Source: Coleofasciculus sp. B1-GNL1-01
GTDB lineage: Bacteria; Cyanobacteriota; Cyanobacteriia; Cyanobacteriales; Coleofasciculaceae
NCBI GenBank assembly: GCA_040220235.1
Contig: JAVJTO010000087.1
Direction: 5' to 3' (one strand)
DNA length: 14,948 bases
Part shown: one piece after another, positions 2,418 through 14,829 of the stretch
Position numbering within the stretch: the first letter of the stretch is position 1
Layout of the letters: the number at the start of each line of letters is the position of its first letter
Notes under the pieces: generated by a model
Databases searched by the model: none
Seen by the model: the letters and a program-made list of their open reading frames with translations, nothing else
What the model was told of the DNA's origin: nothing
Translations under genes and position numbers: made by a program

Positions 2418-3959
2418 TTAATAATCTCCCCCAGAACCATAGCGCCATGCATCCAGCCAACGGTGGTAATAGTATTGGGTGGTTGGGGGTAATTGATGTA
2501 CGGGTTTGCTCATGAATTGTCCTAATGGATATAAGCCACTGTAGACACCCAGATTAATGTAATGCACCATCCAATCTAACAGGGTGGTTAACCCAACTTG
2601 GGGAATCACAGGCGTCACCAGTCCCGGTTTAGTTAGGGAAATCAGTGTTAAGGTTTGGAATAGTCCAGAAAACTGCACCACATCTTGCAGGAAGGGGCGC
2701 AGTACGTCATCCCCCAACTGTGCCATTGTTTGAAAAACACCACTGAGCAACTCATTGATTTGATTGGGGGGGAGATTTTGCTCAACGCCCACACTCATCG
2801 CCCGTTGAAACATCCAGGTAACGGCAATATTCGGCTGATAGGGTTGCAGTAGACTCAAGGCGTCTTGGGTCAAAACGTCGCCGCTAAGGGCTTCCTGGAT
2901 GCCTTCTGTCAAACGTTTGAGGTGACGCACCATGGAGCCAAATCCGCCAAAACTGACGGGGGATTGAGCGCCACTGCTATCACCCACGGGCAAGATTCGA
3001 TTCCAGGGCATTCTGATGGGACTGTCTTTGTAGGATGGGAAAAAGCCAAATAACACTCGTTTAAAATCAAGTTGCGACAGTTCCACCCCTTGATAGTCGG
3101 GCAATAGCCGGAAGTATTCCTCCATAAAAAACCCCAAGCTGGGGCGTTGGGGATGGGCGTCGAGATAGCTGAATAAGTAGGTGGTTCTGCCATCTCTGGC
3201 GGGAAAGGCTTCCCAAAAGTATTGACAATGATTCTGAATGGGTGTAAAAGAGACAATTAAATCTCCTGTATCATTCTGGGTAAAGCCTTGAGCGCAACTA
3301 CCCACAACCAGACAAACCCCTTCCGGTTTTTCCCCCTGTCGCACTTGTTTAACGATAGGGGAGAAATTGCCCATCGCATCAATCAGTAACCGGGTGTTTA
3401 ACCCACCCGCCGCCTCGACGCGCACCCCATCCGGATGAATCACCGCCCCCTCGAATGCCGTTTTTTCCAAAAGCTGACCCCCAGCCTCGAGAAACTTGGA
3501 CTTGAGGGTATCGAGAAGGAAAACCGGGTCAACGCCAATATTCAGGACATCCCGCACCCAGACATCCTCTCCCCCCAAAAAACTCACCCGACCTGGGTTA
3601 TACTCAGATGCGATCGCGTCCTCTAATTCTTCCGGCGATAATAGGTCAAGTTCCAGGAATACCTCAAGTTCTGGGCGGGAAATATTCCACTCTTGATCCC
3701 TCCCCCGCAGAATTCCCCGTTCCAATAGGGCGACGCGCCAGCCTCGCTTTTGCAACGCCGCAGCTAGCAGAATGCCCAAAGTACCGCCACAGATAACGAT
3801 ATCCCAATCGACAGTTCCCAAGGGTTCAGTTGATTCCTTAACCACCTGGGGAATCGGTGTGGTACCGTCTCGCAACGCTTGCCAGAATTGGTCAGCCTTT
3901 TGCAAGCCTGCCAAGACATCTCCCGGTAGTTGGGAAAGAATGTGTTCAGTTTGACTCAT
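2418..3959 (-). CDS. cruP: FAD-dependent oxidoreductase, CruA/CruP lycopene-cyclase family (CruP-type)
   Basis: Rossmann motif DIVICGGTLG, LRGRDQEWNISR, IDAMGNFSPI, YFWEAFPARDGRTTYLF, GDSSGAQSPVSFGGFG and C-terminal WRYGSGGDY. ATG at 3959 (MSQTEHIL) is preferred over GTG at 3977. Confidence 0.85.
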   Translation of the reverse strand: MSQTEHILSQLPGDVLAGLQKADQFWQALRDGTTPIPQVVKESTEPLGTVDWDIVICGGTLGILLAAALQKRGWRVALLERGILRGRDQEWNISRPELEVFLELDLLSPEELEDAIASEYNPGRVSFLGGEDVWVRDVLNIGVDPVFLLDTLKSKFLEAGGQLLEKTAFEGAVIHPDGVRVEAAGGLNTRLLIDAMGNFSPIVKQVRQGEKPEGVCLVVGSCAQGFTQNDTGDLIVSFTPIQNHCQYFWEAFPARDGRTTYLFSYLDAHPQRPSLGFFMEEYFRLLPDYQGVELSQLDFKRVLFGFFPSYKDSPIRMPWNRILPVGDSSGAQSPVSFGGFGSMVRHLKRLTEGIQEALSGDVLTQDALSLLQPYQPNIAVTWMFQRAMSVGVEQNLPPNQINELLSGVFQTMAQLGDDVLRPFLQDVVQFSGLFQTLTLISLTKPGLVTPVIPQVGLTTLLDWMVHYINLGVYSGLYPLGQFMSKPVHQLPPTTQYYYHRWLDAWRYGSGGDY

Positions 3960-4021
3960 GACTCTCTCGTTTGGCACAGATGCTCCCTCTACATCCTAAT
4001 CTGCGAGGGGTTAAAGATAGA

Positions 4022-4345: not shown

Positions 4346-5461
4346 ATGAACAAACTATTTTTATTAGCTATTATCGTTATCGGCTCTATGGGATTCGCGA
4401 CTCCGGCTGTAGCCGAAACCAAAACCGCCGCATCGGGAAACGTTCGAGCTGAGTTTTCCTATCAAAGCCAAGAGTTTTGTTTAGATGACGCCCAATTACA
4501 AATCAGTCGAGATGGGGCAATTTTACTGAATCAATCGTCATTAACAGATTTTGGAATTTGTCGGTTGACGGATTTGCAAGTCCGCAACTTAGACGTTAAC
4601 CCCGAACCCGAAGTGATTTTAGACATCTATACGGGGGGAGCGCATTGCTGTTGGGTTTCTATGATTTATCGCTACGATGCGGCTCAAGATGCCTATACTT
4701 TAACCGAACAGTTTTGGGGGAATGCGGGTTACGAATTTAAAGACTTAAATCAAGATAACCTCCCCGAATTTTGGACACGGGACGATAGCTTTGCTTATGC
4801 ATTTACGTCTTATGCTGGTTCGTCTTTTCCCTTGCAGATTTGGCAGTATCGCAATGGCAAGATGGTAGACGTAACGCGCAGCTATCCGCAACTGATCTAC
4901 AATGATGCCTATCAACTCTGGCAGCGTTATACAGAAACTGAATATCCCGGTGTGGCTAGAGGAGCATTAGCCGCTTATTTAGCGGATAAATATATGCTTG
5001 GTCAAAGTGAAGATGGTTGGCAGCGTGTTCGTCAAGCTTATCAAGGAAATGACAGAGAGTCATTCTTTAAGGATTTACGCAAATTCCTCCAACAAACGGG
5101 TTATATTAGAAATCCTGGAGAAACAGCCTATTATCAGCTCGCTGAATTAGAACAGACGGAATTATATAACCAATGTCCCCCAGAAACTAGCTTAAGGACG
5201 GCTGGGGAAACGGACAACTATCGTTTTGCTATCTGTGCGGGTGAGTCAGGTCAATATTATTTAGGACAATCGAAACGGACAGGAGATTCGATTACCGTGA
5301 AACATAAGCAAAATGATCCAGAGAATTCGTTCCGTCGTGGCGATACGGTTTATCGTTTGCAAATGGATGAAGGTGACTCGGCGAATTTGTATCTGGAAGT
5401 CTATCAAAATAATCAGCGATTATTAAGGGAAATGGCACAGCAGGTTTATTCATTGATTTAG
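4346..5461 (+). CDS. Secreted/periplasmic hypothetical protein (371 aa, probably two domains)
   Basis: Sec signal peptide MNKLFLLAIIVIGSMGFATPAVA, a YTGGAHCC motif, DLNQDNLPE-type loops, and a C-terminal ~100-aa region with a Cys pair (CPPE...AIC). Confidence 0.8.
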   Translation: MNKLFLLAIIVIGSMGFATPAVAETKTAASGNVRAEFSYQSQEFCLDDAQLQISRDGAILLNQSSLTDFGICRLTDLQVRNLDVNPEPEVILDIYTGGAHCCWVSMIYRYDAAQDAYTLTEQFWGNAGYEFKDLNQDNLPEFWTRDDSFAYAFTSYAGSSFPLQIWQYRNGKMVDVTRSYPQLIYNDAYQLWQRYTETEYPGVARGALAAYLADKYMLGQSEDGWQRVRQAYQGNDRESFFKDLRKFLQQTGYIRNPGETAYYQLAELEQTELYNQCPPETSLRTAGETDNYRFAICAGESGQYYLGQSKRTGDSITVKHKQNDPENSFRRGDTVYRLQMDEGDSANLYLEVYQNNQRLLREMAQQVYSLI

Positions 5462-5656: not shown

Positions 5657-5907
5657 AGCTGTCATGCATTTAAAGTGGGTATTAGTAGCGAGCAAGATGC
5701 TTAATGTAGCGAACAAGATGCTTAATGTAGCGAGCAAGATGCTTAATGTAGCGAGCAAGATGCTTAATGCAGCGAGCAAGATGCTTAATGTAGCGAGCAA
5801 GATGCTTAATGTAGCGAGCAAGATGCTTAATGTAGCGAGCAAGATGCTCGCACTACGGCAAGGATTTCGCAATTATTGACATTAAGGTTTAAATGTCGAA
5901 CAGCTTA
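5655..5907 (+). mobile_element. MITE family A, copy 2, expanded by an internal tandem array
   Basis: Same termini and internal sequence as 4118-4245. It shares TA 5655-5656 with MITE B. Confidence 0.8.
5685..5856 (+). repeat. 21-bp tandem array (GTAGCGAGCAAGATGCTTAAT)x7 plus terminal palindrome GTAGCGAGCAAGATGCTCGCACTAC
   Basis: Units start at 5685, 5706, 5727, 5748, 5769, 5790, 5811 and 5832. The seven full units show two single-base variants. Confidence 0.95.
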
Positions 5908-5971: not shown

Positions 5972-6083
5972 ATGTCTAGACGAGATGATCTACATTTTTC
6001 AGCTAGCTATCCAGCGTAATAAAATAAATCTACTCGTCTATGAACCAAGTTAGGAGGTAATTCTTCAATGGATAAATCCCTAA
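5972..6083 (+). pseudogene. xisH: xisH remnant (large internal deletion, frameshift, premature stop)
   Basis: ATG 5972 gives MSRRDDLHF, an XisH-like N-terminus. The next frame from 5994 gives IFQLAIQRNKINLLVYEPS*EVILQWINP*, an XisH-like C-terminus, overlapping the xisI start in the usual CAATGGAT arrangement. Confidence 0.75.
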
Positions 6084-6394
6084 GTTATGCAGATATCCTG
6101 AAAAAAACGCTGCAAGAGGCGACTATCGCCCAACCTCGTTTACAAGCCATCAAACTCTATCCGGTTTGTGATGTTGATTCGGGTCATTTTTTAGTTTTGG
6201 CTACAGGATTGGATAAACAACGGTGGATCGATACCGTTCTATTTCATGCTCGTTTAGTTGCTGATCAAGTCATCATTGAAGAAGATAATTTTGAGGAAGG
6301 ATTAACTCAGGCACTAATTACCGCAGGAATTAGGAAAGAGGATATTGTGACTAATCAGTATGGCTTCAACCCTTTGTCTCAGAAATCATCCTGA
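6068..6394 (+). CDS. xisI: XisI-family protein
   Basis: 108 aa with the family pattern D...GHFLVLATG...HARL...VIIEEDNFEEGLTQALITAGIRKEDIV. RBS AGGAGG at 6052-6057. Confidence 0.88.
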   Translation: MDKSLSYADILKKTLQEATIAQPRLQAIKLYPVCDVDSGHFLVLATGLDKQRWIDTVLFHARLVADQVIIEEDNFEEGLTQALITAGIRKEDIVTNQYGFNPLSQKSS

Positions 6395-6513: not shown

Positions 6514-6927
6514 TTATTTGCTATTAGCGTCTTGTTCAGTTGAGTCCGGAAATGAACATTCGACGGTAATCTTTAGGTTGCTCTTAGCTGTTCCTTTGGT
6601 GACATAAGGAACGCCAGCTTCACCACCCAGTTCGATGCCAAATTCTAGGGTAACTTTGTTGACGTTCGCGATCGCCATTTTTTTAAAAGCACTTAAGGTG
6701 TAGATTGTATACGCTCGAATTGTGCCTTGAATCGCTCGAAAATTCTGCACCATTTGCCTTTGCGCTTTGGCGACTTCAATGGTTTTGGGAACTGTGGGCT
6801 CCTCTCCGTCTTCGTCTTCCTCTTCGTCTTCGGGTTCTGTGGTGATGTCTGGAATGTCTACTTCATCTGTGGCTTCAATATAGATGATGGTTTGGTCGTC
6901 GAGCTTAATCGGGATGAGTTGAGGCAT
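6514..6927 (-). CDS. Trypco1 / CU044_2847-like peptidase-co-occurring protein
   Basis: N-terminal IPIKLDDQTIIYIEA, an acidic linker, a helix, then KVTLEFGIELGGEAGVPYVTKGTAKSNLKITV, the 'vtlEFGi...eaG..itkg.a.an.kvt' pattern of this family. Confidence 0.78.
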   Translation of the reverse strand: MPQLIPIKLDDQTIIYIEATDEVDIPDITTEPEDEEEDEDGEEPTVPKTIEVAKAQRQMVQNFRAIQGTIRAYTIYTLSAFKKMAIANVNKVTLEFGIELGGEAGVPYVTKGTAKSNLKITVECSFPDSTEQDANSK

Positions 6928-6952
6928 GATCGTTTGATGGGGTGGTATGGGT

Positions 6953-7077
6953 TAAGCTGTTCGGCATTTAAACCTTAATATCAATAACGGCGAAAGCCTT
7001 GTAGTGCGAGCATCTTGCTCGCTACTCGTGAGCATCTTGCTCGCTACTAATACCCAATTTAAATGCATGACAGCTTA
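6953..7077 (-). mobile_element. MITE family A, copy 3 (inverted), in the divergent promoter region
   Basis: Reverse complement of copies 1 and 2. It carries two copies of GAGCATCTTGCTCGCTAC. Confidence 0.8.
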
Positions 7078-7119
7078 TTGTTTAGCATACTTTCCAGGGC
7101 GACAACTGTTGGAGACGAT

Positions 7120-7888
7120 TAGCCGAATGTTTGTCATGATGAGGGAATAACACCGATAAAGATTGTTGGCGATGAGTCGGGATGCTTTGGTTGTTGGTAT
7201 AAATAAGTATGAGCGATTTAATCCCCTGCAAGCGCCAGGGGAAGATGCGGAAGCGGTAGCTCAACGCCTGAAACAGTATGGTGAGTTTAAGGTAACTCGA
7301 CTCCCAGGGGTTAAGGATAAGCAGAATAACCGGATTCGGGTGGGTCAGAAAACCAAGGTTACACTGAGTCAGCTACGAAACGCCATTATACAATTGTTTA
7401 AGCCTAAGGGTAAATCAGTCCCAGATACAGCGCTATTATACTTTTCTGGGCATGGATTACGGCAGGATTTGGGGGTGGAAGAAGGGTTTTTAGCGAGTAG
7501 TGATGTGAATCCAGAGGGGGAAAACTGGGGATTACCTCTACAGTGGTTACGTCGATTGCTGCTCACCAGTGAGGTGCGACAGCAAATTGTGATCCTGGAT
7601 TGCTGTTACAGTGGGGAGGTTCTGAATTTTGCTGAGGCTGATCCAGGGGAGGGAGGGAAAGCACGCGATCGCTCTTTTATTGCTGCTTCACGAGAGTTCG
7701 AGGTAGCCTACGAGGGGATTGATGGGAGTCATAGTGCGTTTACGGCGGCGTTACTAGAGGCGCTGGAACCCAAGTCAGAGCGCTGGGTAACGAATTACAC
7801 TTTAGTCGAGCGTCTGCATCAAATTAGCTCAGAGTTTCCCCAACGTTGGATTTGTAGCAATTCTGGGGAACCGATTCATCTTACTCGT
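7120..7888 (+). repeat. Long direct repeat, copy 1 (5' leader + caspase domain)
   Basis: Gapless match to 11766-12534 (offset 4646). The leader is 51/52 identical, and 33 of 239 aa differ by hand count. Confidence 0.92.
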
Positions 7889-10030
7889 TGTTTGACGCCA
7901 CTCATACCTAAGTCAGAGACGCTTCAACCTGAGTTAGCCGCTTCTCCCCATAATTTAAAGCGTAGTGGTGTAATTGAGTTTGTGGGACGCGCGGATGTTC
8001 TGGAAAATCTGCACCAACAATTACAGCAAACTGAACGCATCGCGATTTGTGCGGTAGCGGGGATGGGAGGTGTGGGGAAAACGGAATTAGCTTTACAGTA
8101 TGCTCTACATCACCAGAAACAGGGAACCTATCCCGGTGGCTTGTGCTGGATACTGGCGGGGGATGGCGTTGTCGGAACTCAGATTGTTAGTTTTGCTAGA
8201 ACTCAATTAGATTTACAGTTACCCGATGGGTTAGAGTTAACTGAACAGGTGGCTTACTGCTGGCGACATTGGCGGAGAGGGGATGTCTTATTTATCTTTG
8301 ATGATGTGCGAAATTATCGACAGATCAAACCCTATCTTCCCCCTGCGGAATCGCGGTTTAAGGTGTTGATTACGACTAGGCGACAAAAGTTGGGGGCGTC
8401 TTTTCAACGAATACATCTAGATGTACTGACTGAAGCAGCCGCGATTGATTTGTTCGTGTCATTGATTGGACAAGAACGGATTGAGGCGGAACCAGAACAG
8501 GTAAAACATCTGTGTGAACAATTAGGCTATTTACCCTTGGGATTGGAATTAGTAGGGCGGTATTTACAGCGTAAGCCTGATTTGTCATTCGAGAAAATGT
8601 GCCAGCGTTTGGGGTTAAAGCATCGTTCCCTAAATAATCCTGACCCAGATATGACGGCACAATTAGGGGTTGAGGCAGCATTTGAGTTAAGTTGGCTTGA
8701 ACTCAGTCAAAAAGCTCAAAAGTTAGGTTGTTTTCTGAGTTTATTTGCACTGGCTCCCATCCTCTGGGCAGACGAAGATGTAGAAGAGTTAGAGGATATT
8801 GTAGAAGAGTTAGAGGATATTAGGGATGATGAATTGGTGAATCGGAGCTTATTGAAACGGGTAGATAAAGAGAGTTATCAACTGCACCAACTGGTTAGGG
8901 AATTCTTGAAAGAGAAGTTAGAGGAATTAACTGAAGCTGAGGAGTTTAAACACAGGTTTTGCCAGGTGATGGTCATGGTGGCACAGCAGATTCCTGAGAC
9001 GCCAACTAAAGATGATATTGTCATCGCCACCCCGATGATTCCGCACCTAGCCGAAGCCGCAACGACTCAGAAGGATTGGTTAAGTGATAAAGATTTAATT
9101 TACCCCTTTGGTGGCTTAGGTCGATTTTATGAAGGTCAAGGACTTTACAGACAAGCGTTACCCTGGCGTAAGCAGTGCTTATCAGCAACCAGAGAGCGTT
9201 TAGGTGATGACCATCTCGATGTAGCAATGAGTCTCAACAATCTGGCAGCACTCTACTATTCACAGGGAAGGTATGGGGAAGCTGAACCTTTGTATCAAAA
9301 AGCCTTAGAGTTAGATAAACGCCTCTTGGGTGATGACCATCCTGATGTGGCAAGAAGTCTGAATAATCTGGCAAGACTCTACGAATCACAGGGAAGGTAT
9401 AGTGAAGCCGAACCTTTATATCTGCAAGCCTTAGAGTTGTTTAAACGCCTCCTGGGTGATGACCATCCCGATGTGGCAATGAGTTTCAACAATCTGGCTC
9501 TACTCTACAAATCACAGGGAAGGTATGGGGAAGCTGAACCTTTGTTTCTGCAAGCCTTAGACTTGAGAAAACGCCTGCTGGGGGATGACCATCCCGATGT
9601 CGCACAAAGTCTCAACAATCTGGCATATCTCTACTCATCACAGGGAAGGTATGGGGAAGCCGAACCTTTGTATCTGCAAGCCTTGGAGTTGAGAAAACGC
9701 CTGCTGGGGGATGACCATCCTGATGTAGCAAACAGTCTCAACAATCTGGCAGCACTCTACCGTTCACAGGGAAGGTATGGTGAAGCTGAACCTTTGTATC
9801 TGCAAGCCTTAAAGTTATATAAACGCCTGCTGGGGGATGACCATCCTGATGTGGCAATGAGTCTCAACAATCTGGCTGGACTCTACTCATCACAGGGAAG
9901 GTATGGGGAAGCTGAACCTTTGTATCAGCAAGCGTTAGAACTGTGTAAACGCCTGCTGGGGGATGACCATCCCAATACAATCACCGTCCGTGAGAATTTG
10001 CAAAGAATGCGCGAACAATGGCATCAATAG
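7172..10030 (+). CDS. NLR-like protein: caspase (peptidase C14) + NB-ARC STAND NTPase + TPR repeats
   Basis: Dyad YFSGHG / ILDCCYSG intact. FVGR, Walker A GMGGVGKT, Walker B LFIFDDV, LITTR and GYLPLGL are present, followed by six 42-aa TPR units. ATG 7172 is preferred over TTG 7163. Confidence 0.92.
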   Translation: MSRDALVVGINKYERFNPLQAPGEDAEAVAQRLKQYGEFKVTRLPGVKDKQNNRIRVGQKTKVTLSQLRNAIIQLFKPKGKSVPDTALLYFSGHGLRQDLGVEEGFLASSDVNPEGENWGLPLQWLRRLLLTSEVRQQIVILDCCYSGEVLNFAEADPGEGGKARDRSFIAASREFEVAYEGIDGSHSAFTAALLEALEPKSERWVTNYTLVERLHQISSEFPQRWICSNSGEPIHLTRCLTPLIPKSETLQPELAASPHNLKRSGVIEFVGRADVLENLHQQLQQTERIAICAVAGMGGVGKTELALQYALHHQKQGTYPGGLCWILAGDGVVGTQIVSFARTQLDLQLPDGLELTEQVAYCWRHWRRGDVLFIFDDVRNYRQIKPYLPPAESRFKVLITTRRQKLGASFQRIHLDVLTEAAAIDLFVSLIGQERIEAEPEQVKHLCEQLGYLPLGLELVGRYLQRKPDLSFEKMCQRLGLKHRSLNNPDPDMTAQLGVEAAFELSWLELSQKAQKLGCFLSLFALAPILWADEDVEELEDIVEELEDIRDDELVNRSLLKRVDKESYQLHQLVREFLKEKLEELTEAEEFKHRFCQVMVMVAQQIPETPTKDDIVIATPMIPHLAEAATTQKDWLSDKDLIYPFGGLGRFYEGQGLYRQALPWRKQCLSATRERLGDDHLDVAMSLNNLAALYYSQGRYGEAEPLYQKALELDKRLLGDDHPDVARSLNNLARLYESQGRYSEAEPLYLQALELFKRLLGDDHPDVAMSFNNLALLYKSQGRYGEAEPLFLQALDLRKRLLGDDHPDVAQSLNNLAYLYSSQGRYGEAEPLYLQALELRKRLLGDDHPDVANSLNNLAALYRSQGRYGEAEPLYLQALKLYKRLLGDDHPDVAMSLNNLAGLYSSQGRYGEAEPLYQQALELCKRLLGDDHPNTITVRENLQRMREQWHQ
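9209..9964 (+). repeat. Six 126-bp intragenic repeats encoding 42-aa TPR units
   Basis: Units start at 9209, 9335, 9461, 9587, 9713 and 9839. Consensus DHPDVAxSLNNLAxLYxSQGRYGEAEPLYLQALELxKRLLGD. Confidence 0.95.
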
Positions 10031-10032
10031 GT

Positions 10033-10428
10033 GTAGGGTGCGTTAGGCGCATAGTTTTTATTTAGTTTTATCCCTAACCAAACACCCGTGCGCCGTAACG
10101 CACCGTTTTATCGCTGTTGTTTTAGACGTTCCGGCGGAACGTCTCTACTATAGGATGTGTCCTAACCGCTATGGCGGTTGCTGTAATTGGTGCGTTACGC
10201 GGCGCTAACACACGATGGCGGCATGGCACACCTTAATTGGTGGATTAGAATTGTAGGGGCGCACCGACGTGCGCCCGATTTAACGATAAATCTATCCCAC
10301 AATTTTAGCTGTGTCAGTCCACTACTGGCGTGGCACACCTTATTTGATGAATTAGAATTGGTTCGTAGTGAGGGAACCTCAGCCCTCTCCAGCTAAGCGT
10401 TATAGCACTAAAGTGCTTACTACAAACC
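10033..10428. repeat. Cluster of REP-like palindromes and a MITE-like element
   Basis: GTAGGGTGCGTTA...TAACGCACC (10033-10104); AGACGTTCCGGCGGAACGTCT (about 10124-10148); GGTGCGTTACGCGGCGCTAACACAC (about 10189-10213); element 10220-10320 with imperfect TIRs GGCATGGCACACC/GCTGTGTCAGTCC enclosing GTAGGGGCGCAC..GTGCGCCC; GGTTCGTAGT...ACTACAAACC (10360-10428). Confidence 0.75.
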
Positions 10429-10434
10429 TGAATC

Positions 10435-10728
10435 ATGACGCTCTCTATTGTTCTAAAAAACCATCGCTCCGTACTTGCGTCCCATCACTCCGTACTTACG
10501 TCCCATTTATCGGTACTTACGTCCCATTTATCGGTACTTACGTCCCATTCATCCGTACTTACGTCCCATTCATCCGTACTTACGTCCCATCACTCCGTAC
10601 TTACGTCCCATTGCTCCGTACTTACGTCCCATTGCTCCGTACTAAAGCACCGTGACACCGTACCAAAGCACCGTCCTATTGTATCAACGCACCGTGACAC
10701 CGTAACCCTGAACCATCGATTAAAATAG
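10435..10728 (+). CDS. Possible heptad-repeat leader peptide (HxSVLTS)n; may not be translated
   Basis: ATG lies just before the array and TAG just after it, 36 nt before the next gene. An open frame is also expected by chance from a 21-bp unit. Confidence 0.25.
10441..10713 (+). repeat. 21-bp tandem array, about 13 units (9 well conserved: CATnnnTC(C/G)GTACTTACGTCC)
   Basis: Conserved units start at 10462, 10483, 10504, 10525, 10546, 10567, 10588, 10609 and 10630. In-phase degenerate units start at 10441, 10651, 10672 and 10693. Confidence 0.93.
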
Positions 10729-10764
10729 ACAAATCAAATTATTGTTGGGGAGAACAATTGCCAG

Positions 10765-11427
10765 ATGAGTAGCTATATGCCCCGCTCAGATGCTGACTTT
10801 AATAATTGGCAAGGAAATTTTATTGCCACGTTAACTAATTATCTCACCGATTTAGGACTCACTGCCGAAGAAATTACACCGATTACCACCGCTCAAACAA
10901 CCTGGACAACGGCTTACAATAACCATATTGCCGCCCAGTCTGCTGCCGAAAGTGCCCGCCAAGACAAAGACGATAGCGGTAAACAGTATAAATCTTTATT
11001 GCGTCAATTGGTTAATCAACTTCAGGTTAATCCTCAAATGACCGATGCCATGCGCCAAGGATTAGGCATCACTGTCTCTAAATCAACTGCCAGTAGCCTG
11101 GGTGAACCGACAACTCGTCCAATTCCTCGCGTAGAAGTGAAAGGACGCTATCAACTAGAAATTCATTTTGTTGACGAAACAACACCCACTCGTAAAGCTA
11201 AACCCAGTGGTGTAATGGGGAGCGAAATTTGGATCAAAATTGGTGATCCGCCGCCGACTGATCCGCAGGAATTAACGTTTGTGGCGTTAGATACAGCAAC
11301 CCCTTATGTGATGGAATTTAAGGGTGAAGATGTGGGGAAAACCGCTTATTTTATGTTGCGCTGGGTGAATAGAAAAGGGGAATCGGGACCTTGGAGTCAA
11401 ACGGTGAGTATGATGATTCCTGGGTGA
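10765..11427 (+). CDS. Hypothetical protein (220 aa): N-terminal helical domain + C-terminal beta-sandwich (FN3/Ig-like)
   Basis: RBS GGGGAG upstream. N-terminal YMPRSDADF and amphipathic helices, a Pro/Thr linker, then beta-rich KPSGVMGSEIW...GKTAYFMLRWVNRKGESGPWS, which matches an FN3-like terminal strand pattern. No signal peptide. Confidence 0.8.
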   Translation: MSSYMPRSDADFNNWQGNFIATLTNYLTDLGLTAEEITPITTAQTTWTTAYNNHIAAQSAAESARQDKDDSGKQYKSLLRQLVNQLQVNPQMTDAMRQGLGITVSKSTASSLGEPTTRPIPRVEVKGRYQLEIHFVDETTPTRKAKPSGVMGSEIWIKIGDPPPTDPQELTFVALDTATPYVMEFKGEDVGKTAYFMLRWVNRKGESGPWSQTVSMMIPG

Positions 11428-11435
11428 TGGGGTGC

Positions 11436-11688
11436 TCTTTGACATTTTTCCCCCTCATCCCCTAACCCCAACTCCGGACCCCCCTAGTTCCCTAAGCTGT
11501 GTCTGTCTATTCTTTGACATTTTCCCCCTCATCCCCTAACCCCTTCTCCCACCGGGGGAGAAGGGGAACCGGATTTTTTGGCACGGGGGAGGACAGAGGA
11601 TGCTTCGCTTTTGTTGCACCGGAGTTGGGGAACCGGATTCTCTTGCTCCCCTCTCCCCGGCGTGGGAGAGGGGCTGGGGGAGAGGGGT
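11436..11688. repeat. Nested CCCCTCTCCC/GGGAGAGGGG-type palindromic repeat complex
   Basis: 33-34-bp direct repeat (11436-11469, 11511-11543), 12-bp inverted repeat CCCCAACTCCGG (11466-11477 / 11619-11630), and hairpins CCCCTTCTCCC..GGGAGAAGGGG and CCCCTCTCCC..GGGAGAGGGG. Confidence 0.8.
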
Positions 11689-11732
11689 TGCGTAACGTAA
11701 CAATTAAAATGATATAACGTACCCATTAAAAT

Positions 11733-11762
11733 GGTGCGTTACGCTTCGCTAACGCACCCTAC
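11733..11762 (-). repeat. GTAG-type REP palindrome
   Basis: GGTGCGTTA-CGCTTCGC-TAACGCACC-CTAC. Confidence 0.8.
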
Positions 11763-11765
11763 GAA

Positions 11766-12534
11766 TAGCCGAATGTTTGTCATGATGAGGGAATAACACC
11801 GATAAAGATTTTTGGCGATGAGTCGGGATGCTTTGGTTATTGGCATAAATAAGTATGAGCGATTTAATCCCCTGAACGCGCCAGGGGAAGATGCGGAAGC
11901 CGTGGCTCAACGACTAGAACAGTATGGTGAGTTTAAAGTAACTCGACTCCCAGGGGTAAAGGATAAGCAGAATAACCGGATTCGCGTGGGTCAGAAAACC
12001 ACGGTCACACTGAGTCAGCTTGAAGATGCGATTATACAATTATTTATGCCAGAGGGTCGGTCTGTCCCTGATACGGCAATCTTATACTTTTCTGGGCATG
12101 GACTGCGGAAAAGTCGGGGAATTCAGGAAGGCTTTTTAGCCAGCAGTGATGTGAATCCAGAGGCGGGAAACTGGGGATTGTCTCTCCAATGGTTACGTCG
12201 ATTGCTGCTGGCTAGTGAGGTGCGACAACAGATTATTATCCTGGATTGCTGTTATAGTGGGGAGGTTCTCAATGTTGCTGAAGCTGATCCAGGGGAGCGA
12301 GGGAAAGGACGCGATCGCTGTTTTATTGCCGCATCACGAGAGTTCGAGGTGGCGTATGAGGGAATTGATGGGAGTCATAGTGCGTTCACGGCGGCGTTAC
12401 TCGAGGCGCTGGAACCGCAGTCAGAACGCTGGGTGACAAATCACACCTTAGTCGAGCGTCTCAATCAAGTTAACTCAGAGTTTCCCCAACGTCCGATTTT
12501 TGCCAATTCTGGAGAACCGATTAACTTAACCCGT
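11766..12534 (+). repeat. Long direct repeat, copy 2 (5' leader + caspase domain)
   Basis: Gapless match to 7120-7888. Confidence 0.92.
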
Positions 12535-14829
12535 CGCTTGTCAGTAGCCGTATCTGAGTCTATTGAAATACCCCAACCCGCGATTTGTCCTTACAAAGGA
12601 TTAGCCTATTTTGATTGTAATCAGGAAGACCCCAAATACTTTTATGGACGTACTGCACTGACAGATAAGTTGTTAGATCAGGTTCGACAAGGGAATTTTT
12701 TAGCCATTTTAGGAGCCTCAGGAAGCGGGAAGTCATCCGTGCTGCGAGCGGGATTACTGCATCAGCTTAAATTGGGGCGTCGTTTGTCGGGAAGTGAGGC
12801 GTGGGAGGTACGAATTTTAACCCCCGGTGAACATCCGTTGCAGAGTTTAGCCTTGGCGTTTCTTTCAACGGAAGCATCAGGAATTGAAAGAGCCGCACAG
12901 TTGAAGCAAGGGGAAGAGTTATTAGCTGAAGGTGCAACAGGATTACGGCGATTAGTGCAAGCGTCTACGGCTCCTCGCGTCGTGTTGGTGATTGATCAAT
13001 TTGAGGAAGCGTTTACCCTCTGTCAGGATGAGGAAGAACGAGAGTTGTTTTTTGCGTGTTTATTGGGTGTAACCTCCACCTCATCTGTTCAAGAGAGTGG
13101 CTTAAATCTGTGCATTATCCTAGCCATGCGTGCTGATTTCTTCGGGAAATGTGTTGAACGCAACTATAGCGGATTAGGGCAACAAATTCAGCACAACATG
13201 GTAACAGTCACACCGATGAAGCCGGAGGAATTAACCCAGGCAATTGTTGAACCTGCTAAACGAGTAGAATTAGCCGTTGAACCCGAATTGGTAGAGCAGA
13301 TGATTACCGATGTAGAGGGTTCCCCTGGAAGTTTACCTCTGTTGCAATACACATTGATGGAGTTATGGAACAGGCGAAACAATCATGGCTTAAGCTTGGC
13401 AACTTATTCCCAGTTAGGTGGGGTAATGGGGACATTACAAAAACGGGCGACGGAGGTTTACGAGGAGTTCTCGACGCCGGAGAAAGAAGTAGCGAAGCAT
13501 ATTTTTCTGTCGCTGACGCAATTAGGAGAGGGAACAGAAGATACTCGTAGGCGGGTATTGAAGCAGGATTTAGTCACATCGCGCCATTCTGAAGCATTGA
13601 TTAATCGGGTGGTGCAGCGTTTGGCGGATGTTCGTTTAATTGTTACACAAGAGGTATCAACTCTTAATCAAACATCTAAAACTATCAATCCCAATTCAGT
13701 GGTGGTAGATGTAGAACATGAAGCACTGATTCGCCATTGGATAGTATTGCGGCGGTGGTTAAATGAGAGTCGGGATCATCTCCGAGAAAAGCGGAAAATA
13801 GAAGCGGCGGCTGAAGAGTGGCGAAGTTGGGGAAAAGCGAAGGATTATTTATTGCAGGGGAAGCGGTTGAGAGAGGCTAGGGAGTTTCAGAAGGAAAAGG
13901 TAGAAGGCTTTCCTTTATCAAATTTTGCTAAGGAGTTTATTGGGACGAGTGTTAGACGGAAACAGATTAATCGAGTCAAAATTATAGTTGGTGTTCTGAT
14001 TATTCCTTTGATTGGGACGGGGTTTGTCGGTATTGGTATTTATAGAGAGAGAACAATCAAAATATACCGGGAAGTCCTTATGGAAACTAAAGGTTCGGAG
14101 TCCCGTCAAGCAAGACAAGAAAGAATTGAGGCTGTTAAAAAACTATCTTGGCTCCGTGATACTTTTAACGGTGGTTTACTTCAAGGAGCCGACCTCAGGG
14201 AAGCCGACCTCAGGGGAGCCAACCTCAGCAGAGCCTACCTCCAGAACGCCGACCTCCAGGAAGCCCATCTCGGTGGAGCCAACCTCCAGGAAGCCTATCT
14301 CGGTGGAGCCAACCTTCAGGAAGCCAACCTCCAGGAAGCCGACCTCAGTGGAGCAGTCCTCAGTGGAGCAGTCCTCAGGGAAGCCGACCTCAGTGGAGCA
14401 GTCCTCAGGGAAGCCGACCTCAGTGGAGCCGACCTCAGTGGAGCCAACCTCTGGGACGCCGATCTCCAGGAAGCCTACCTCAGGGGAGCCTACCTCATTG
14501 CAACCAACCTCACATTAGCTGACCTCAGTGGAGCCGACCTCCAGGTAGCCTACCTCAGGGGAGCCTACCTCATTGCAACCAACCTCAGTGGAGCCGACCT
14601 CTGGGAAGCCGACCTCAGTGGAGCCGACCTCAGGAGAGCCTACCTCAGGGGAGCCTACCTCAGGGGAGCCTACCTCAGGGGAGCTTACCTAACTCCGGCT
14701 CAAGTCAAAGTTACTTGTGATTGGCAAGAAGCAAATTATAGTGATAATTTTCGTGCAGAATTAAACTCGTCACCTGATCCTGAAGAGAAAGTTGATTGTA
14801 GTCGCTGGAGTTCAGGTGTTGATGACTGA
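11818..14829 (+). CDS. Caspase (C14) + nSTAND1-type NTPase + TM helix + pentapeptide repeats
   Basis: Dyad YFSGHG / ILDCCYSG. NTPase motifs CPYKGLAYF, FYGR, GASGSGKSS, VLVIDQFEE, MRADF, PGSLPLLQ and HEALIRHW. TM segment IIVGVLIIPLIGTGFVGIGIY, then 34 xAxLx repeats. ATG 11818 is preferred over TTG 11812. Confidence 0.9.
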   Translation: MSRDALVIGINKYERFNPLNAPGEDAEAVAQRLEQYGEFKVTRLPGVKDKQNNRIRVGQKTTVTLSQLEDAIIQLFMPEGRSVPDTAILYFSGHGLRKSRGIQEGFLASSDVNPEAGNWGLSLQWLRRLLLASEVRQQIIILDCCYSGEVLNVAEADPGERGKGRDRCFIAASREFEVAYEGIDGSHSAFTAALLEALEPQSERWVTNHTLVERLNQVNSEFPQRPIFANSGEPINLTRRLSVAVSESIEIPQPAICPYKGLAYFDCNQEDPKYFYGRTALTDKLLDQVRQGNFLAILGASGSGKSSVLRAGLLHQLKLGRRLSGSEAWEVRILTPGEHPLQSLALAFLSTEASGIERAAQLKQGEELLAEGATGLRRLVQASTAPRVVLVIDQFEEAFTLCQDEEERELFFACLLGVTSTSSVQESGLNLCIILAMRADFFGKCVERNYSGLGQQIQHNMVTVTPMKPEELTQAIVEPAKRVELAVEPELVEQMITDVEGSPGSLPLLQYTLMELWNRRNNHGLSLATYSQLGGVMGTLQKRATEVYEEFSTPEKEVAKHIFLSLTQLGEGTEDTRRRVLKQDLVTSRHSEALINRVVQRLADVRLIVTQEVSTLNQTSKTINPNSVVVDVEHEALIRHWIVLRRWLNESRDHLREKRKIEAAAEEWRSWGKAKDYLLQGKRLREAREFQKEKVEGFPLSNFAKEFIGTSVRRKQINRVKIIVGVLIIPLIGTGFVGIGIYRERTIKIYREVLMETKGSESRQARQERIEAVKKLSWLRDTFNGGLLQGADLREADLRGANLSRAYLQNADLQEAHLGGANLQEAYLGGANLQEANLQEADLSGAVLSGAVLREADLSGAVLREADLSGADLSGANLWDADLQEAYLRGAYLIATNLTLADLSGADLQVAYLRGAYLIATNLSGADLWEADLSGADLRRAYLRGAYLRGAYLRGAYLTPAQVKVTCDWQEANYSDNFRAELNSSPDPEEKVDCSRWSSGVDD
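14185..14694 (+). repeat. 34 x 15-bp intragenic repeats encoding pentapeptide repeats
   Basis: Consensus G(G/A)AGCC(G/A/T)ACCTC(AGG/AGT/CAG), with higher-order duplicated blocks such as AYLRGAYLIATNL twice. Confidence 0.93.

Follow-up and report, generated by a model that had tools for sequence, protein, structure and literature searches.

Regulated cell death in cyanobacteria has long been associated with orthocaspases, whose natural substrates are to our knowledge largely unknown. A contig of Coleofasciculus sp. B1-GNL1-01 (JAVJTO010000087.1, assembly GCA_040220235.1; genome size 8.66 Mb), analysed here over its entire 14,948 bp and called the window below, raises the question of whether such a substrate may be encoded beside the protease itself. 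It carries a small Trypco1-family gene head-to-head with two co-oriented genes for caspase-STAND receptors. A first-pass annotation of the sequence had described this layout; all three genes are where it placed them, and it missed a gene for a 220-aa protein between the two caspase genes. Our answer, held at a probability of about 0.62, is that the locus would be a protease-gated suicide (abortive-infection-type) Pepco module, in which a receptor senses a trigger, its caspase cuts Trypco1 and the cut protein permeabilises the membrane. Pepco is equated with Trypco1 and Trypco2 by Evans et al. 2025 (bioRxiv 10.1101/2025.11.14.688446 / PMC12642450); here and below, statements on cited works refer to the parts of their text that were available. 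The locus thus supplies orthocaspases with a named candidate substrate, a predicted cut site and a proposed killing mechanism. If the reading is true, the Pepco mechanism would take in caspases as well as the Trypco1 family, and the module bears on whether several receptors share one executioner. Since the module type is already in print, the surprise is limited.

The Trypco1 gene (6514-6927, minus strand) encodes 137 aa according to the open reading frame list and profile scans, and a gap of 244 bp separates it from the divergent caspase-NB-ARC-TPR gene. Its product matches Pfam PF19493 (E 3e-22, 79.4 bits against a cut-off of 24.6) and the NCBIfam CU044_2847 family NF041216 (E 2e-25, 89.2 bits against 23), and its closest named homologues are from Coleofasciculus, a filamentous cyanobacterium; profile scans for Trypco2 (PF19631) gave no match to this protein or elsewhere in the genome. 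Together with its tree placement, these matches assign it to a caspase-linked branch of the Trypco1/Pepco family, as a predicted latent pore-forming effector. An AlphaFold monomer of low confidence (pLDDT 51.5) has strands at residues 5-8 and 14-19, a disordered stretch at 22-47, a helix at 48-83 and strands at 91-99 and 118-125, placing an added N-terminal hairpin and an acidic linker before the helix. A Foldseek search with this model returned 0 matches at E<=0.001, and an Atlas structure search found nothing above TM 0.5 except Trypco1. The best-conserved part of the protein is an amphipathic C-terminal beta-hairpin (aa 89-126; 6550-6663, minus strand), a predicted barrel stave with alternating hydrophobic and polar faces and a hydrophobic moment of up to 0.59, features read from the sequence; confidence in the monomer model is low. 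F96, G97 and G105 are nearly invariant in 74 sequences, and the core ends with VECSFP, followed by a variable tail.

Both receptors have the layout of STAND/NLR-like proteins expected by the first-pass annotation, with an N-terminal effector, an NTPase with Walker A and B motifs and C-terminal repeats. The Pfam profiles it had named (Trypco1, Peptidase_C14, NB-ARC and nSTAND1) all matched in the window. The first receptor (7172-10030, plus strand, 952 aa) combines Peptidase_C14, NB-ARC and TPR domains, and the second (11818-14829, plus strand, 1003 aa) Peptidase_C14, nSTAND1 and pentapeptide repeats; the NB-ARC (69.9 bits) and nSTAND1 (412.8 bits, E 3e-123) scores are over the Pfam cut-offs. 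As described earlier, the catalytic dyad, H94 (FSGHG) and C145 (LDCCYSG), is intact in both, and it is invariant across 21 aligned caspase domains. Walker A/B motifs are GMGGVGKT/LFIFDD in the NB-ARC receptor and GASGSGKS/VLVIDQF in the nSTAND1 receptor. Hydropathy also bears out the division into a soluble and a membrane-anchored form: a transmembrane-like 19-mer occurs in the second receptor only (aa 723-741; 13984-14040; mean Kyte-Doolittle value 2.4, against a best value of 1.6 in the first). Its position and the basic residues preceding it suggest that the caspase and NTPase domains are cytoplasmic and the pentapeptide repeats (14185-14684) exported. The first receptor contains 126-bp repeats at 9206-9973, encoding 42-aa TPR units. 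In 21 repeats from five loci these vary at positions 3, 6, 13, 16, 22 and 35 on a conserved scaffold, as would be expected of a ligand-binding surface, and the pattern used to find the repeats itself fixes seven positions.

The two caspase domains of the window are 86% identical, and a 57-bp leader with exactly two matches in the genome precedes each caspase gene (7115-7171 and 11761-11817, plus strand; 96.5% identity). This shared, otherwise unique leader and the similarity of the domains mark a duplication with differing C-terminal modules, so that this strain has two copies of the leader-caspase unit, on two different sensors. A contig from another population covers the leader-caspase-nSTAND1 junction (11755-13160), which makes misassembly an improbable origin for the second caspase gene. 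In four RNA-library contig sets, coverage takes in intergenic repeats as well as genes and is therefore not read as evidence of expression, and among the pieces listed none joins the two caspase genes; a promoter and terminator scan was at chance (7 versus 7.7). The caspase domain of the membrane-anchored receptor was modelled with a pLDDT of 84.6, its best fold matches being MALT1 paracaspase and metacaspases. A profile search of solved structures likewise placed metacaspases and MALT1 closest, and a single-sequence search of the PDB gave chance matches only. D25 and D143 align with Asp residues of the metacaspase-1 motifs, which we take to be specificity-pocket residues. A fifth paralogue of this caspase clade in the same genome (G000:C63:118104-121853) has lost the dyad, with Tyr in place of His and an altered Cys motif.

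Is the juxtaposition of Trypco1 and caspase accidental? This genome contains five Trypco1 genes. Three lie directly upstream of trypsin-like genes, one of them in a MoxR-type cluster; the window copy and the copy on contig C102 each lie head-to-head with a caspase-STAND gene. This recurrence at C102, as well as across cyanobacteria, indicates a link beyond chance. Trypco1 was present in 30 genomes of an evenly drawn set of 151 from cyanobacteria; 55 loci were fetched, of which 52 had a classifiable open reading frame and three weak or broken matches were left out. Pfam-confirmed classification gave 11 loci with a head-to-head C14 gene, 23 with a trypsin gene directly downstream and 18 with neither, one of the last keeping a 30-codon caspase remnant. 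The 1.5-2 kb flanks of the surveyed loci contained no caspase in the same orientation. A conserved divergent link between Trypco1 and this caspase clade, which the first-pass annotation had offered as a point to check, is therefore present (11/52 loci, all in one branch). Among 25 loci of close relatives, ten had a head-to-head caspase (two of them broken), one a CHAT domain and one an nSTAND1 remnant; eight had no protease and five were unreadable upstream. At L041, a decayed caspase lies beside a persisting Trypco1. The pair was also present in all five plasmid regions viewed, out of seven records matched, and plasmid copies lie beside integrases and transposases; a search of 50,697 phage records gave no match.

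Phylogeny separates the two kinds of linkage. In a tree of 75 proteins, based on 130 alignment columns and with long branches, all 23 caspase-linked Trypco1 proteins fell into one branch (support 96/87) together with 20 unlinked rows and none of the 25 trypsin-linked proteins. Caspase and Trypco1 distances are correlated in 20 linked pairs (rho 0.75; 0 of 5000 permutations as high), a value inflated by kinship, and both Trypco1-caspase pairs of this genome group each with its own lineage. In addition, four of eight congeners have the window-type Trypco1, and these same four are the only ones with a close caspase orthologue (86-92%). We conclude that a conserved, mobile caspase-Pepco module is real.

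Several individual loci are recorded here in their own right. On one plasmid of Acaryochloris, two Trypco1-caspase-nSTAND1 pairs lie less than 10 kb apart (L136:8001-8354 and 12059-12337), with genes for an integrase, a transposase and a TIR protein beside them. A congener locus has a deletion (L002:3030-3040, joining window position 6883 to 7343) that removes the 5' ends of Trypco1 and caspase together; it may reflect a mistake in assembly or the inactivation of both genes at once. At L016:7173-7856, the gene opposite a partial caspase-branch Trypco1 encodes a CHAT domain in place of C14, in a genome with no match to the C14 clade.

How does this pair relate to known systems? In Actinobacteria and cyanobacteria, according to Evans et al. 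(PMC12642450), the partners of Pepco proteins are proteases of the serine or cysteine type, and transmembrane STAND ATPases are also named among them. The one tested member, SsPepco of Streptomyces subrutilus, forms a 9-10-mer beta-barrel and becomes toxic once the trypsin-like SsAvs4 cuts after Ile97 (PMC12642450). The window shares with SsPepco-SsAvs4 a small Trypco-family gene beside a protease-STAND sensor, as well as a predicted core of amphipathic helix and beta-hairpin. It differs in several respects: SsPepco is co-oriented upstream of a trypsin-like protease gene and loses a C-terminal tail after Ile97, whereas the window has a Trypco1 head-to-head with a C14 caspase, an extra N-terminal hairpin and acidic linker, and a predicted N-terminal cut after Lys. 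By eye, SsPepco is of the Trypco2 type, its sequence starting with a helix like those of the Trypco2 proteins fetched. With a Trypco gene adjoining a cysteine protease-sensor fusion whose catalytic residues are intact, the window pair agrees with how Pepco-protease modules have been defined in print; it belongs neither to the VMAP or EACC1 systems nor to any named Avs type.

The VMAP ternary systems of Kaur et al. 2020 (PMC7159879) involve Trypco1 of the same Pfam family; in that paper Trypco accompanies trypsin, and caspases accompany an alpha/beta-hydrolase. In the window, no MoxR, vWA or VMAP gene was found. The EACC1-caspase systems (Kaur et al. 2020; KrEACC1-KrAvs12) resemble it in combining a constant small effector with a caspase on highly variable STAND/repeat sensors. 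EACC1 is activated by loss of an inhibitory N-terminal fragment (PMC12642450), which the proposed N-terminal removal from Trypco1 would parallel. It differs in effector family, in its co-orientation and in a putative Asp site; no EACC1 match was found in the window, and the window caspases score 94.9 and 99.9 bits against the EACC1-type model NF047832, below its cut-off of 140. Orthocaspases fused to WD40, NACHT or pentapeptide domains (PMC2853523; PMC5756287), including the caspase-pentapeptide fusions catalogued by Jiang et al. 2010, share C14, repeat and NTPase domains with the window and are expected to prefer Arg/Lys. The available parts of those accounts name no dedicated effector for the multidomain forms, and the window offers a candidate substrate and site.

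The pairing of Trypco with a cysteine protease is therefore already published. A DGR preprint also mentions Trypco1 near trypsin- or caspase-like genes. In the available text and supplement of Kaur et al. 2020, Trypco appears with trypsin only and no caspase pairing was found, and in that of Kaur et al. 2021 no Trypco passage. Within the literature accessible to us, we found no account of Trypco1 proteins forming a caspase-linked branch, of their gene orientation or of cleavage on the N-terminal side, and Nicastro et al. 2023 and Fig. 5A of Evans et al. may cover the pairing. What appears to be new here is the Lys/Arg-Gly linker motif of the caspase branch and the predicted N-terminal cut. For Pepco itself, Evans et al. 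cite Nicastro et al. 2023.

We propose the following sequence of events. The repeat domain of a caspase-STAND receptor would bind a trigger, whereupon the NTPase would oligomerise and activate the C14 domains, a step that is very likely by what is understood of STAND proteins. The caspase would then cut the head-to-head Trypco1, for which linkage and co-divergence argue equally strongly. Where it does so is less certain, and we lean only slightly towards a cut after the basic residue that closes the acidic linker. This linker (aa 20-48; 6784-6870, minus strand) ends with Lys48 (codon 6784-6786), and the predicted site is K48|T49, which corresponds to K|G in most relatives. Such a cut would shed an acidic N-terminal propeptide, not a C-terminal tail; the predicted N-terminal fragment, including the hairpin, has a net charge of -16, and the remaining helix and beta-hairpin core is slightly basic (+3). 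By analogy with SsPepco, the core would then form an oligomeric beta-barrel or unmask one; with its membrane made permeable the cell would die, to the protection of the filament or mat. We consider this step likely. Trypco1 is thus probably a pore-forming suicide protein activated by the two receptor proteases. The executioner role suggested for it by the first-pass annotation is supported, such a function having been published for a trypsin-linked, Trypco2-looking Pepco (Evans et al. 2025). A predicted complex of the caspase domain and Trypco1 scored 0.00; with controls not folded and the fold of the partner uncertain, this result was counted neither way.

Conservation of the linker motif points to the position of the cut. 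After 7 partial or insertion-bearing rows of 75 were dropped, a linker Lys/Arg-Gly was present in 27/38 caspase-branch sequences (9.1 in shuffles; 0 of 1000 as high) versus 2/30 in the trypsin branch. The latter more often had Val/Ile followed by a small residue (21/30 versus 10.6 in shuffles), a combination that is also frequent in the caspase branch (24/38 versus 18.9). Among close homologues, 117 of 120 of which were counted and which are kin and not independent, Lys/Arg-Gly occurred in 59 (12.5 expected), Lys followed by a small residue in 99 and a linker Asp-Gly in 7 (17 expected). Since it is the Lys just after the acidic run that is conserved, and not Asp-Gly, cleavage probably does not fall within the run. 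The acidic linker pointed out by the first-pass annotation is present, with the proposed cut at its end. Metacaspases and MALT1-type groups cut after Arg/Lys (PMC5756287), and LcCaspase, a bacterial caspase studied by Evans et al. 2025, cuts Arg-Gly motifs (PMC12642450); the aligned Asp residues and nearest folds of the window caspases would suit this type, KrAvs12 being a counter-example. Activation of the caspase-linked branch therefore appears to involve a cut different from that in SsPepco.

The same module could instead be activated by removal of the C-terminal tail, as in SsPepco, which loses a charged 2-kDa tail, or by an Asp cut in the acidic run, the linker Lys being incidental. A tail of 4-20 residues follows C-x-F in all 120 close homologues, beginning with D/E in 86 of the 117 counted, and KrAvs12 is proposed to cut at Asp. 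We consider both variants unlikely: a conserved Ile with a removable 2-kDa tail of the SsPepco type was not found, the tail lacks any conserved residue, some caspase-branch members (several) end 1-3 residues past the last strand, and the scarcity of Asp-Gly stands against the enriched, caspase-branch-specific Lys/Arg-Gly. An Asp-directed cut at the 'FP-D' end or within the acidic run was accordingly rejected for want of conservation.

If Trypco1 is the executioner, does it answer to more than one sensor? In this strain, the cytoplasmic TPR sensor and the pentapeptide sensor beyond the transmembrane helix probably act on a common effector. Four congeners have a single close caspase copy each: the fully readable loci of G154 and G158 contain the NB-ARC-TPR copy only, in G153 a TPR end lies on another contig, ahead of the 220-aa gene and host genes, and in G155 the contig ends within the caspase gene. 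More distant relatives mostly pair this Trypco1 type with nSTAND1 forms that carry pentapeptide, WD40 or other domains at their C-terminal end, the nSTAND1-TM-pentapeptide form being the commonest sub-branch partner (5 of 9 full-length architectures examined, plus two plasmid loci). Some caspase-branch Trypco1 genes are orphans with no readable C14 neighbour; 12 of the 17 genomes concerned (4/7 plus 8/10, two of those ten being unreadable upstream) have a caspase of this clade elsewhere, in up to 5-6 copies, and these unlinked caspases intermix with linked ones on the tree. We used this orphan subset alone, because the corresponding genome-level count (14/17 versus 5/133) includes many unrelated genomes and is partly circular, the model having been built from linked caspases. 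Orphan Trypco1 genes together with unlinked clade caspases suggest that one effector can serve several sensors. A bolder proposal, which we put forward tentatively and at somewhat less than even odds, is that caspase-branch Trypco1 would be the dedicated executioner of cyanobacterial multidomain orthocaspases. As a zymogen of gasdermin-like kind, it would be opened when a cut at Arg/Lys takes off its acidic N-terminal propeptide, the reverse of what happens in SsPepco, the one Pepco tested. The cut residue would have changed along with the type of protease, being Lys/Arg where the partner is a caspase and Val/Ile where it is a trypsin, and one copy would serve several unlinked NLR-like receptors, including membrane-spanning ones, as a small innate-immune network.

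The pair might also serve stress-related or developmental cell death, such as filament fragmentation or envelope-stress signalling, in place of phage defence, with the pentapeptide receptor sensing an envelope or thylakoid cue. The frequency of the nSTAND1-TM-pentapeptide form, the housekeeping genes nearby and the stress roles raised by Evans et al. for EACC1-DnaK fusions would suit such a function. We regard it as improbable, given that patchy occurrence within the genus (4/8), sensor swapping, hypervariable TPR repeats, broken copies and plasmid carriage fit conflict systems better. That Trypco1 is an inhibitor, decoy or adaptor silencing the caspase, with killing through other host targets, would agree with the divergent, non-operonic arrangement, with clade caspases lacking Trypco1 in 5/133 genomes and with an effector-less defensive caspase reported by Evans et al., but is very improbable because deletion of SsPepco abolished toxicity and did not release it, the orphan Trypco1 at L041 persists beside a decayed caspase and the amphipathic hairpin is the most conserved part.

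A number of observations weigh against the suicide-module reading or its parts. The pore mechanism is transferred by analogy, since the tested Pepco is trypsin-linked and Trypco2-looking and the profiles barely align: comparison of Trypco1 with Trypco2 (an alignment of seven sequences) gave a probability of 3%. PADLOC 2.0 found no Avs match at E<=0.001 in the window, only generic caspase/TPR matches and a weak 23-residue P-loop match, and the window is no defence island. Of the 43 caspase-branch members, 20 have no full caspase neighbour, and 5 of the 17 orphan genomes have no caspase of this clade. As for the cut, the window Trypco1 has K-T, not K-G; KrAvs12 has a DCC motif and yet a putative Asp site (PMC12642450), and the second pocket Cys of metacaspases is absent from this caspase clade, so that the residue before the cut (P1) cannot be read safely from sequence. 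The shared cytoplasmic and extracytoplasmic sensor pair envisaged in the first-pass annotation exists as a tandem, but was seen in this genome alone, the two fully readable congener loci having the NB-ARC-TPR form only. Finally, the same caspase clade faces an unnamed 153-aa gene at other loci, one of them in this genome, and Trypco1 is therefore not the sole candidate substrate.

The 153-aa protein is a candidate second effector of this caspase clade. Its gene is followed by one for 510-540 aa (G000:C151 = L100:922-1383 and 1380-2921; also L082 and L099), and a fused form, with a related N-terminal part on a 725-745-aa protein, occurs at L096:4050-6227 and L098:183-2420. Proteins of this type have a basic motif in mid-protein, and those scanned had no Pfam or NCBIfam match.

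Other genes in and around the locus were excluded from the module. The 220-aa hypothetical protein (10765-11427, plus strand) has no Pfam or NCBIfam match, and its Atlas relatives are unnamed Bacteroidota clusters with a weak FN3 lead. Copies 85-100% identical occur in four of eight congeners, and the gene was absent from 17 more distant genomes searched; because two of the four congeners lack the window-type Trypco1, it was dropped as a module member. Between the caspase genes it is preceded by 21-bp tandem repeats (10461-10704). Repeats of this length at 5685-5848 and at 6950-7075 match tens to more than 200 places in the genome and were likewise rejected as module parts. An XisI-family gene (6068-6394) adjoins Trypco1 on the side of the 5685-5848 repeats; it was not among the listed open reading frames or alignments at the congener loci and was dropped too. 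Ordinary neighbours kept in congeners are a membrane adenylate/guanylate cyclase, an FAD-dependent oxidoreductase and a 371-aa protein (516-2177, 2418-3977 and 4346-5461), the last with a signal-peptide-like start and no family match.

Two observations concern Trypco genes outside the caspase branch. A small trypsin-branch Trypco1 clade (L052, L055, L066, L070 and L073) lacks a protease neighbour, four of the five members being downstream of the same conserved 280-aa gene, and is possibly a domesticated form. In addition, downstream of the Trypco2 genes at L105, L107 and L108 are genes with N-termini that by eye resemble CHAT domains, which suggests caspase-type partners for Trypco2 as well.

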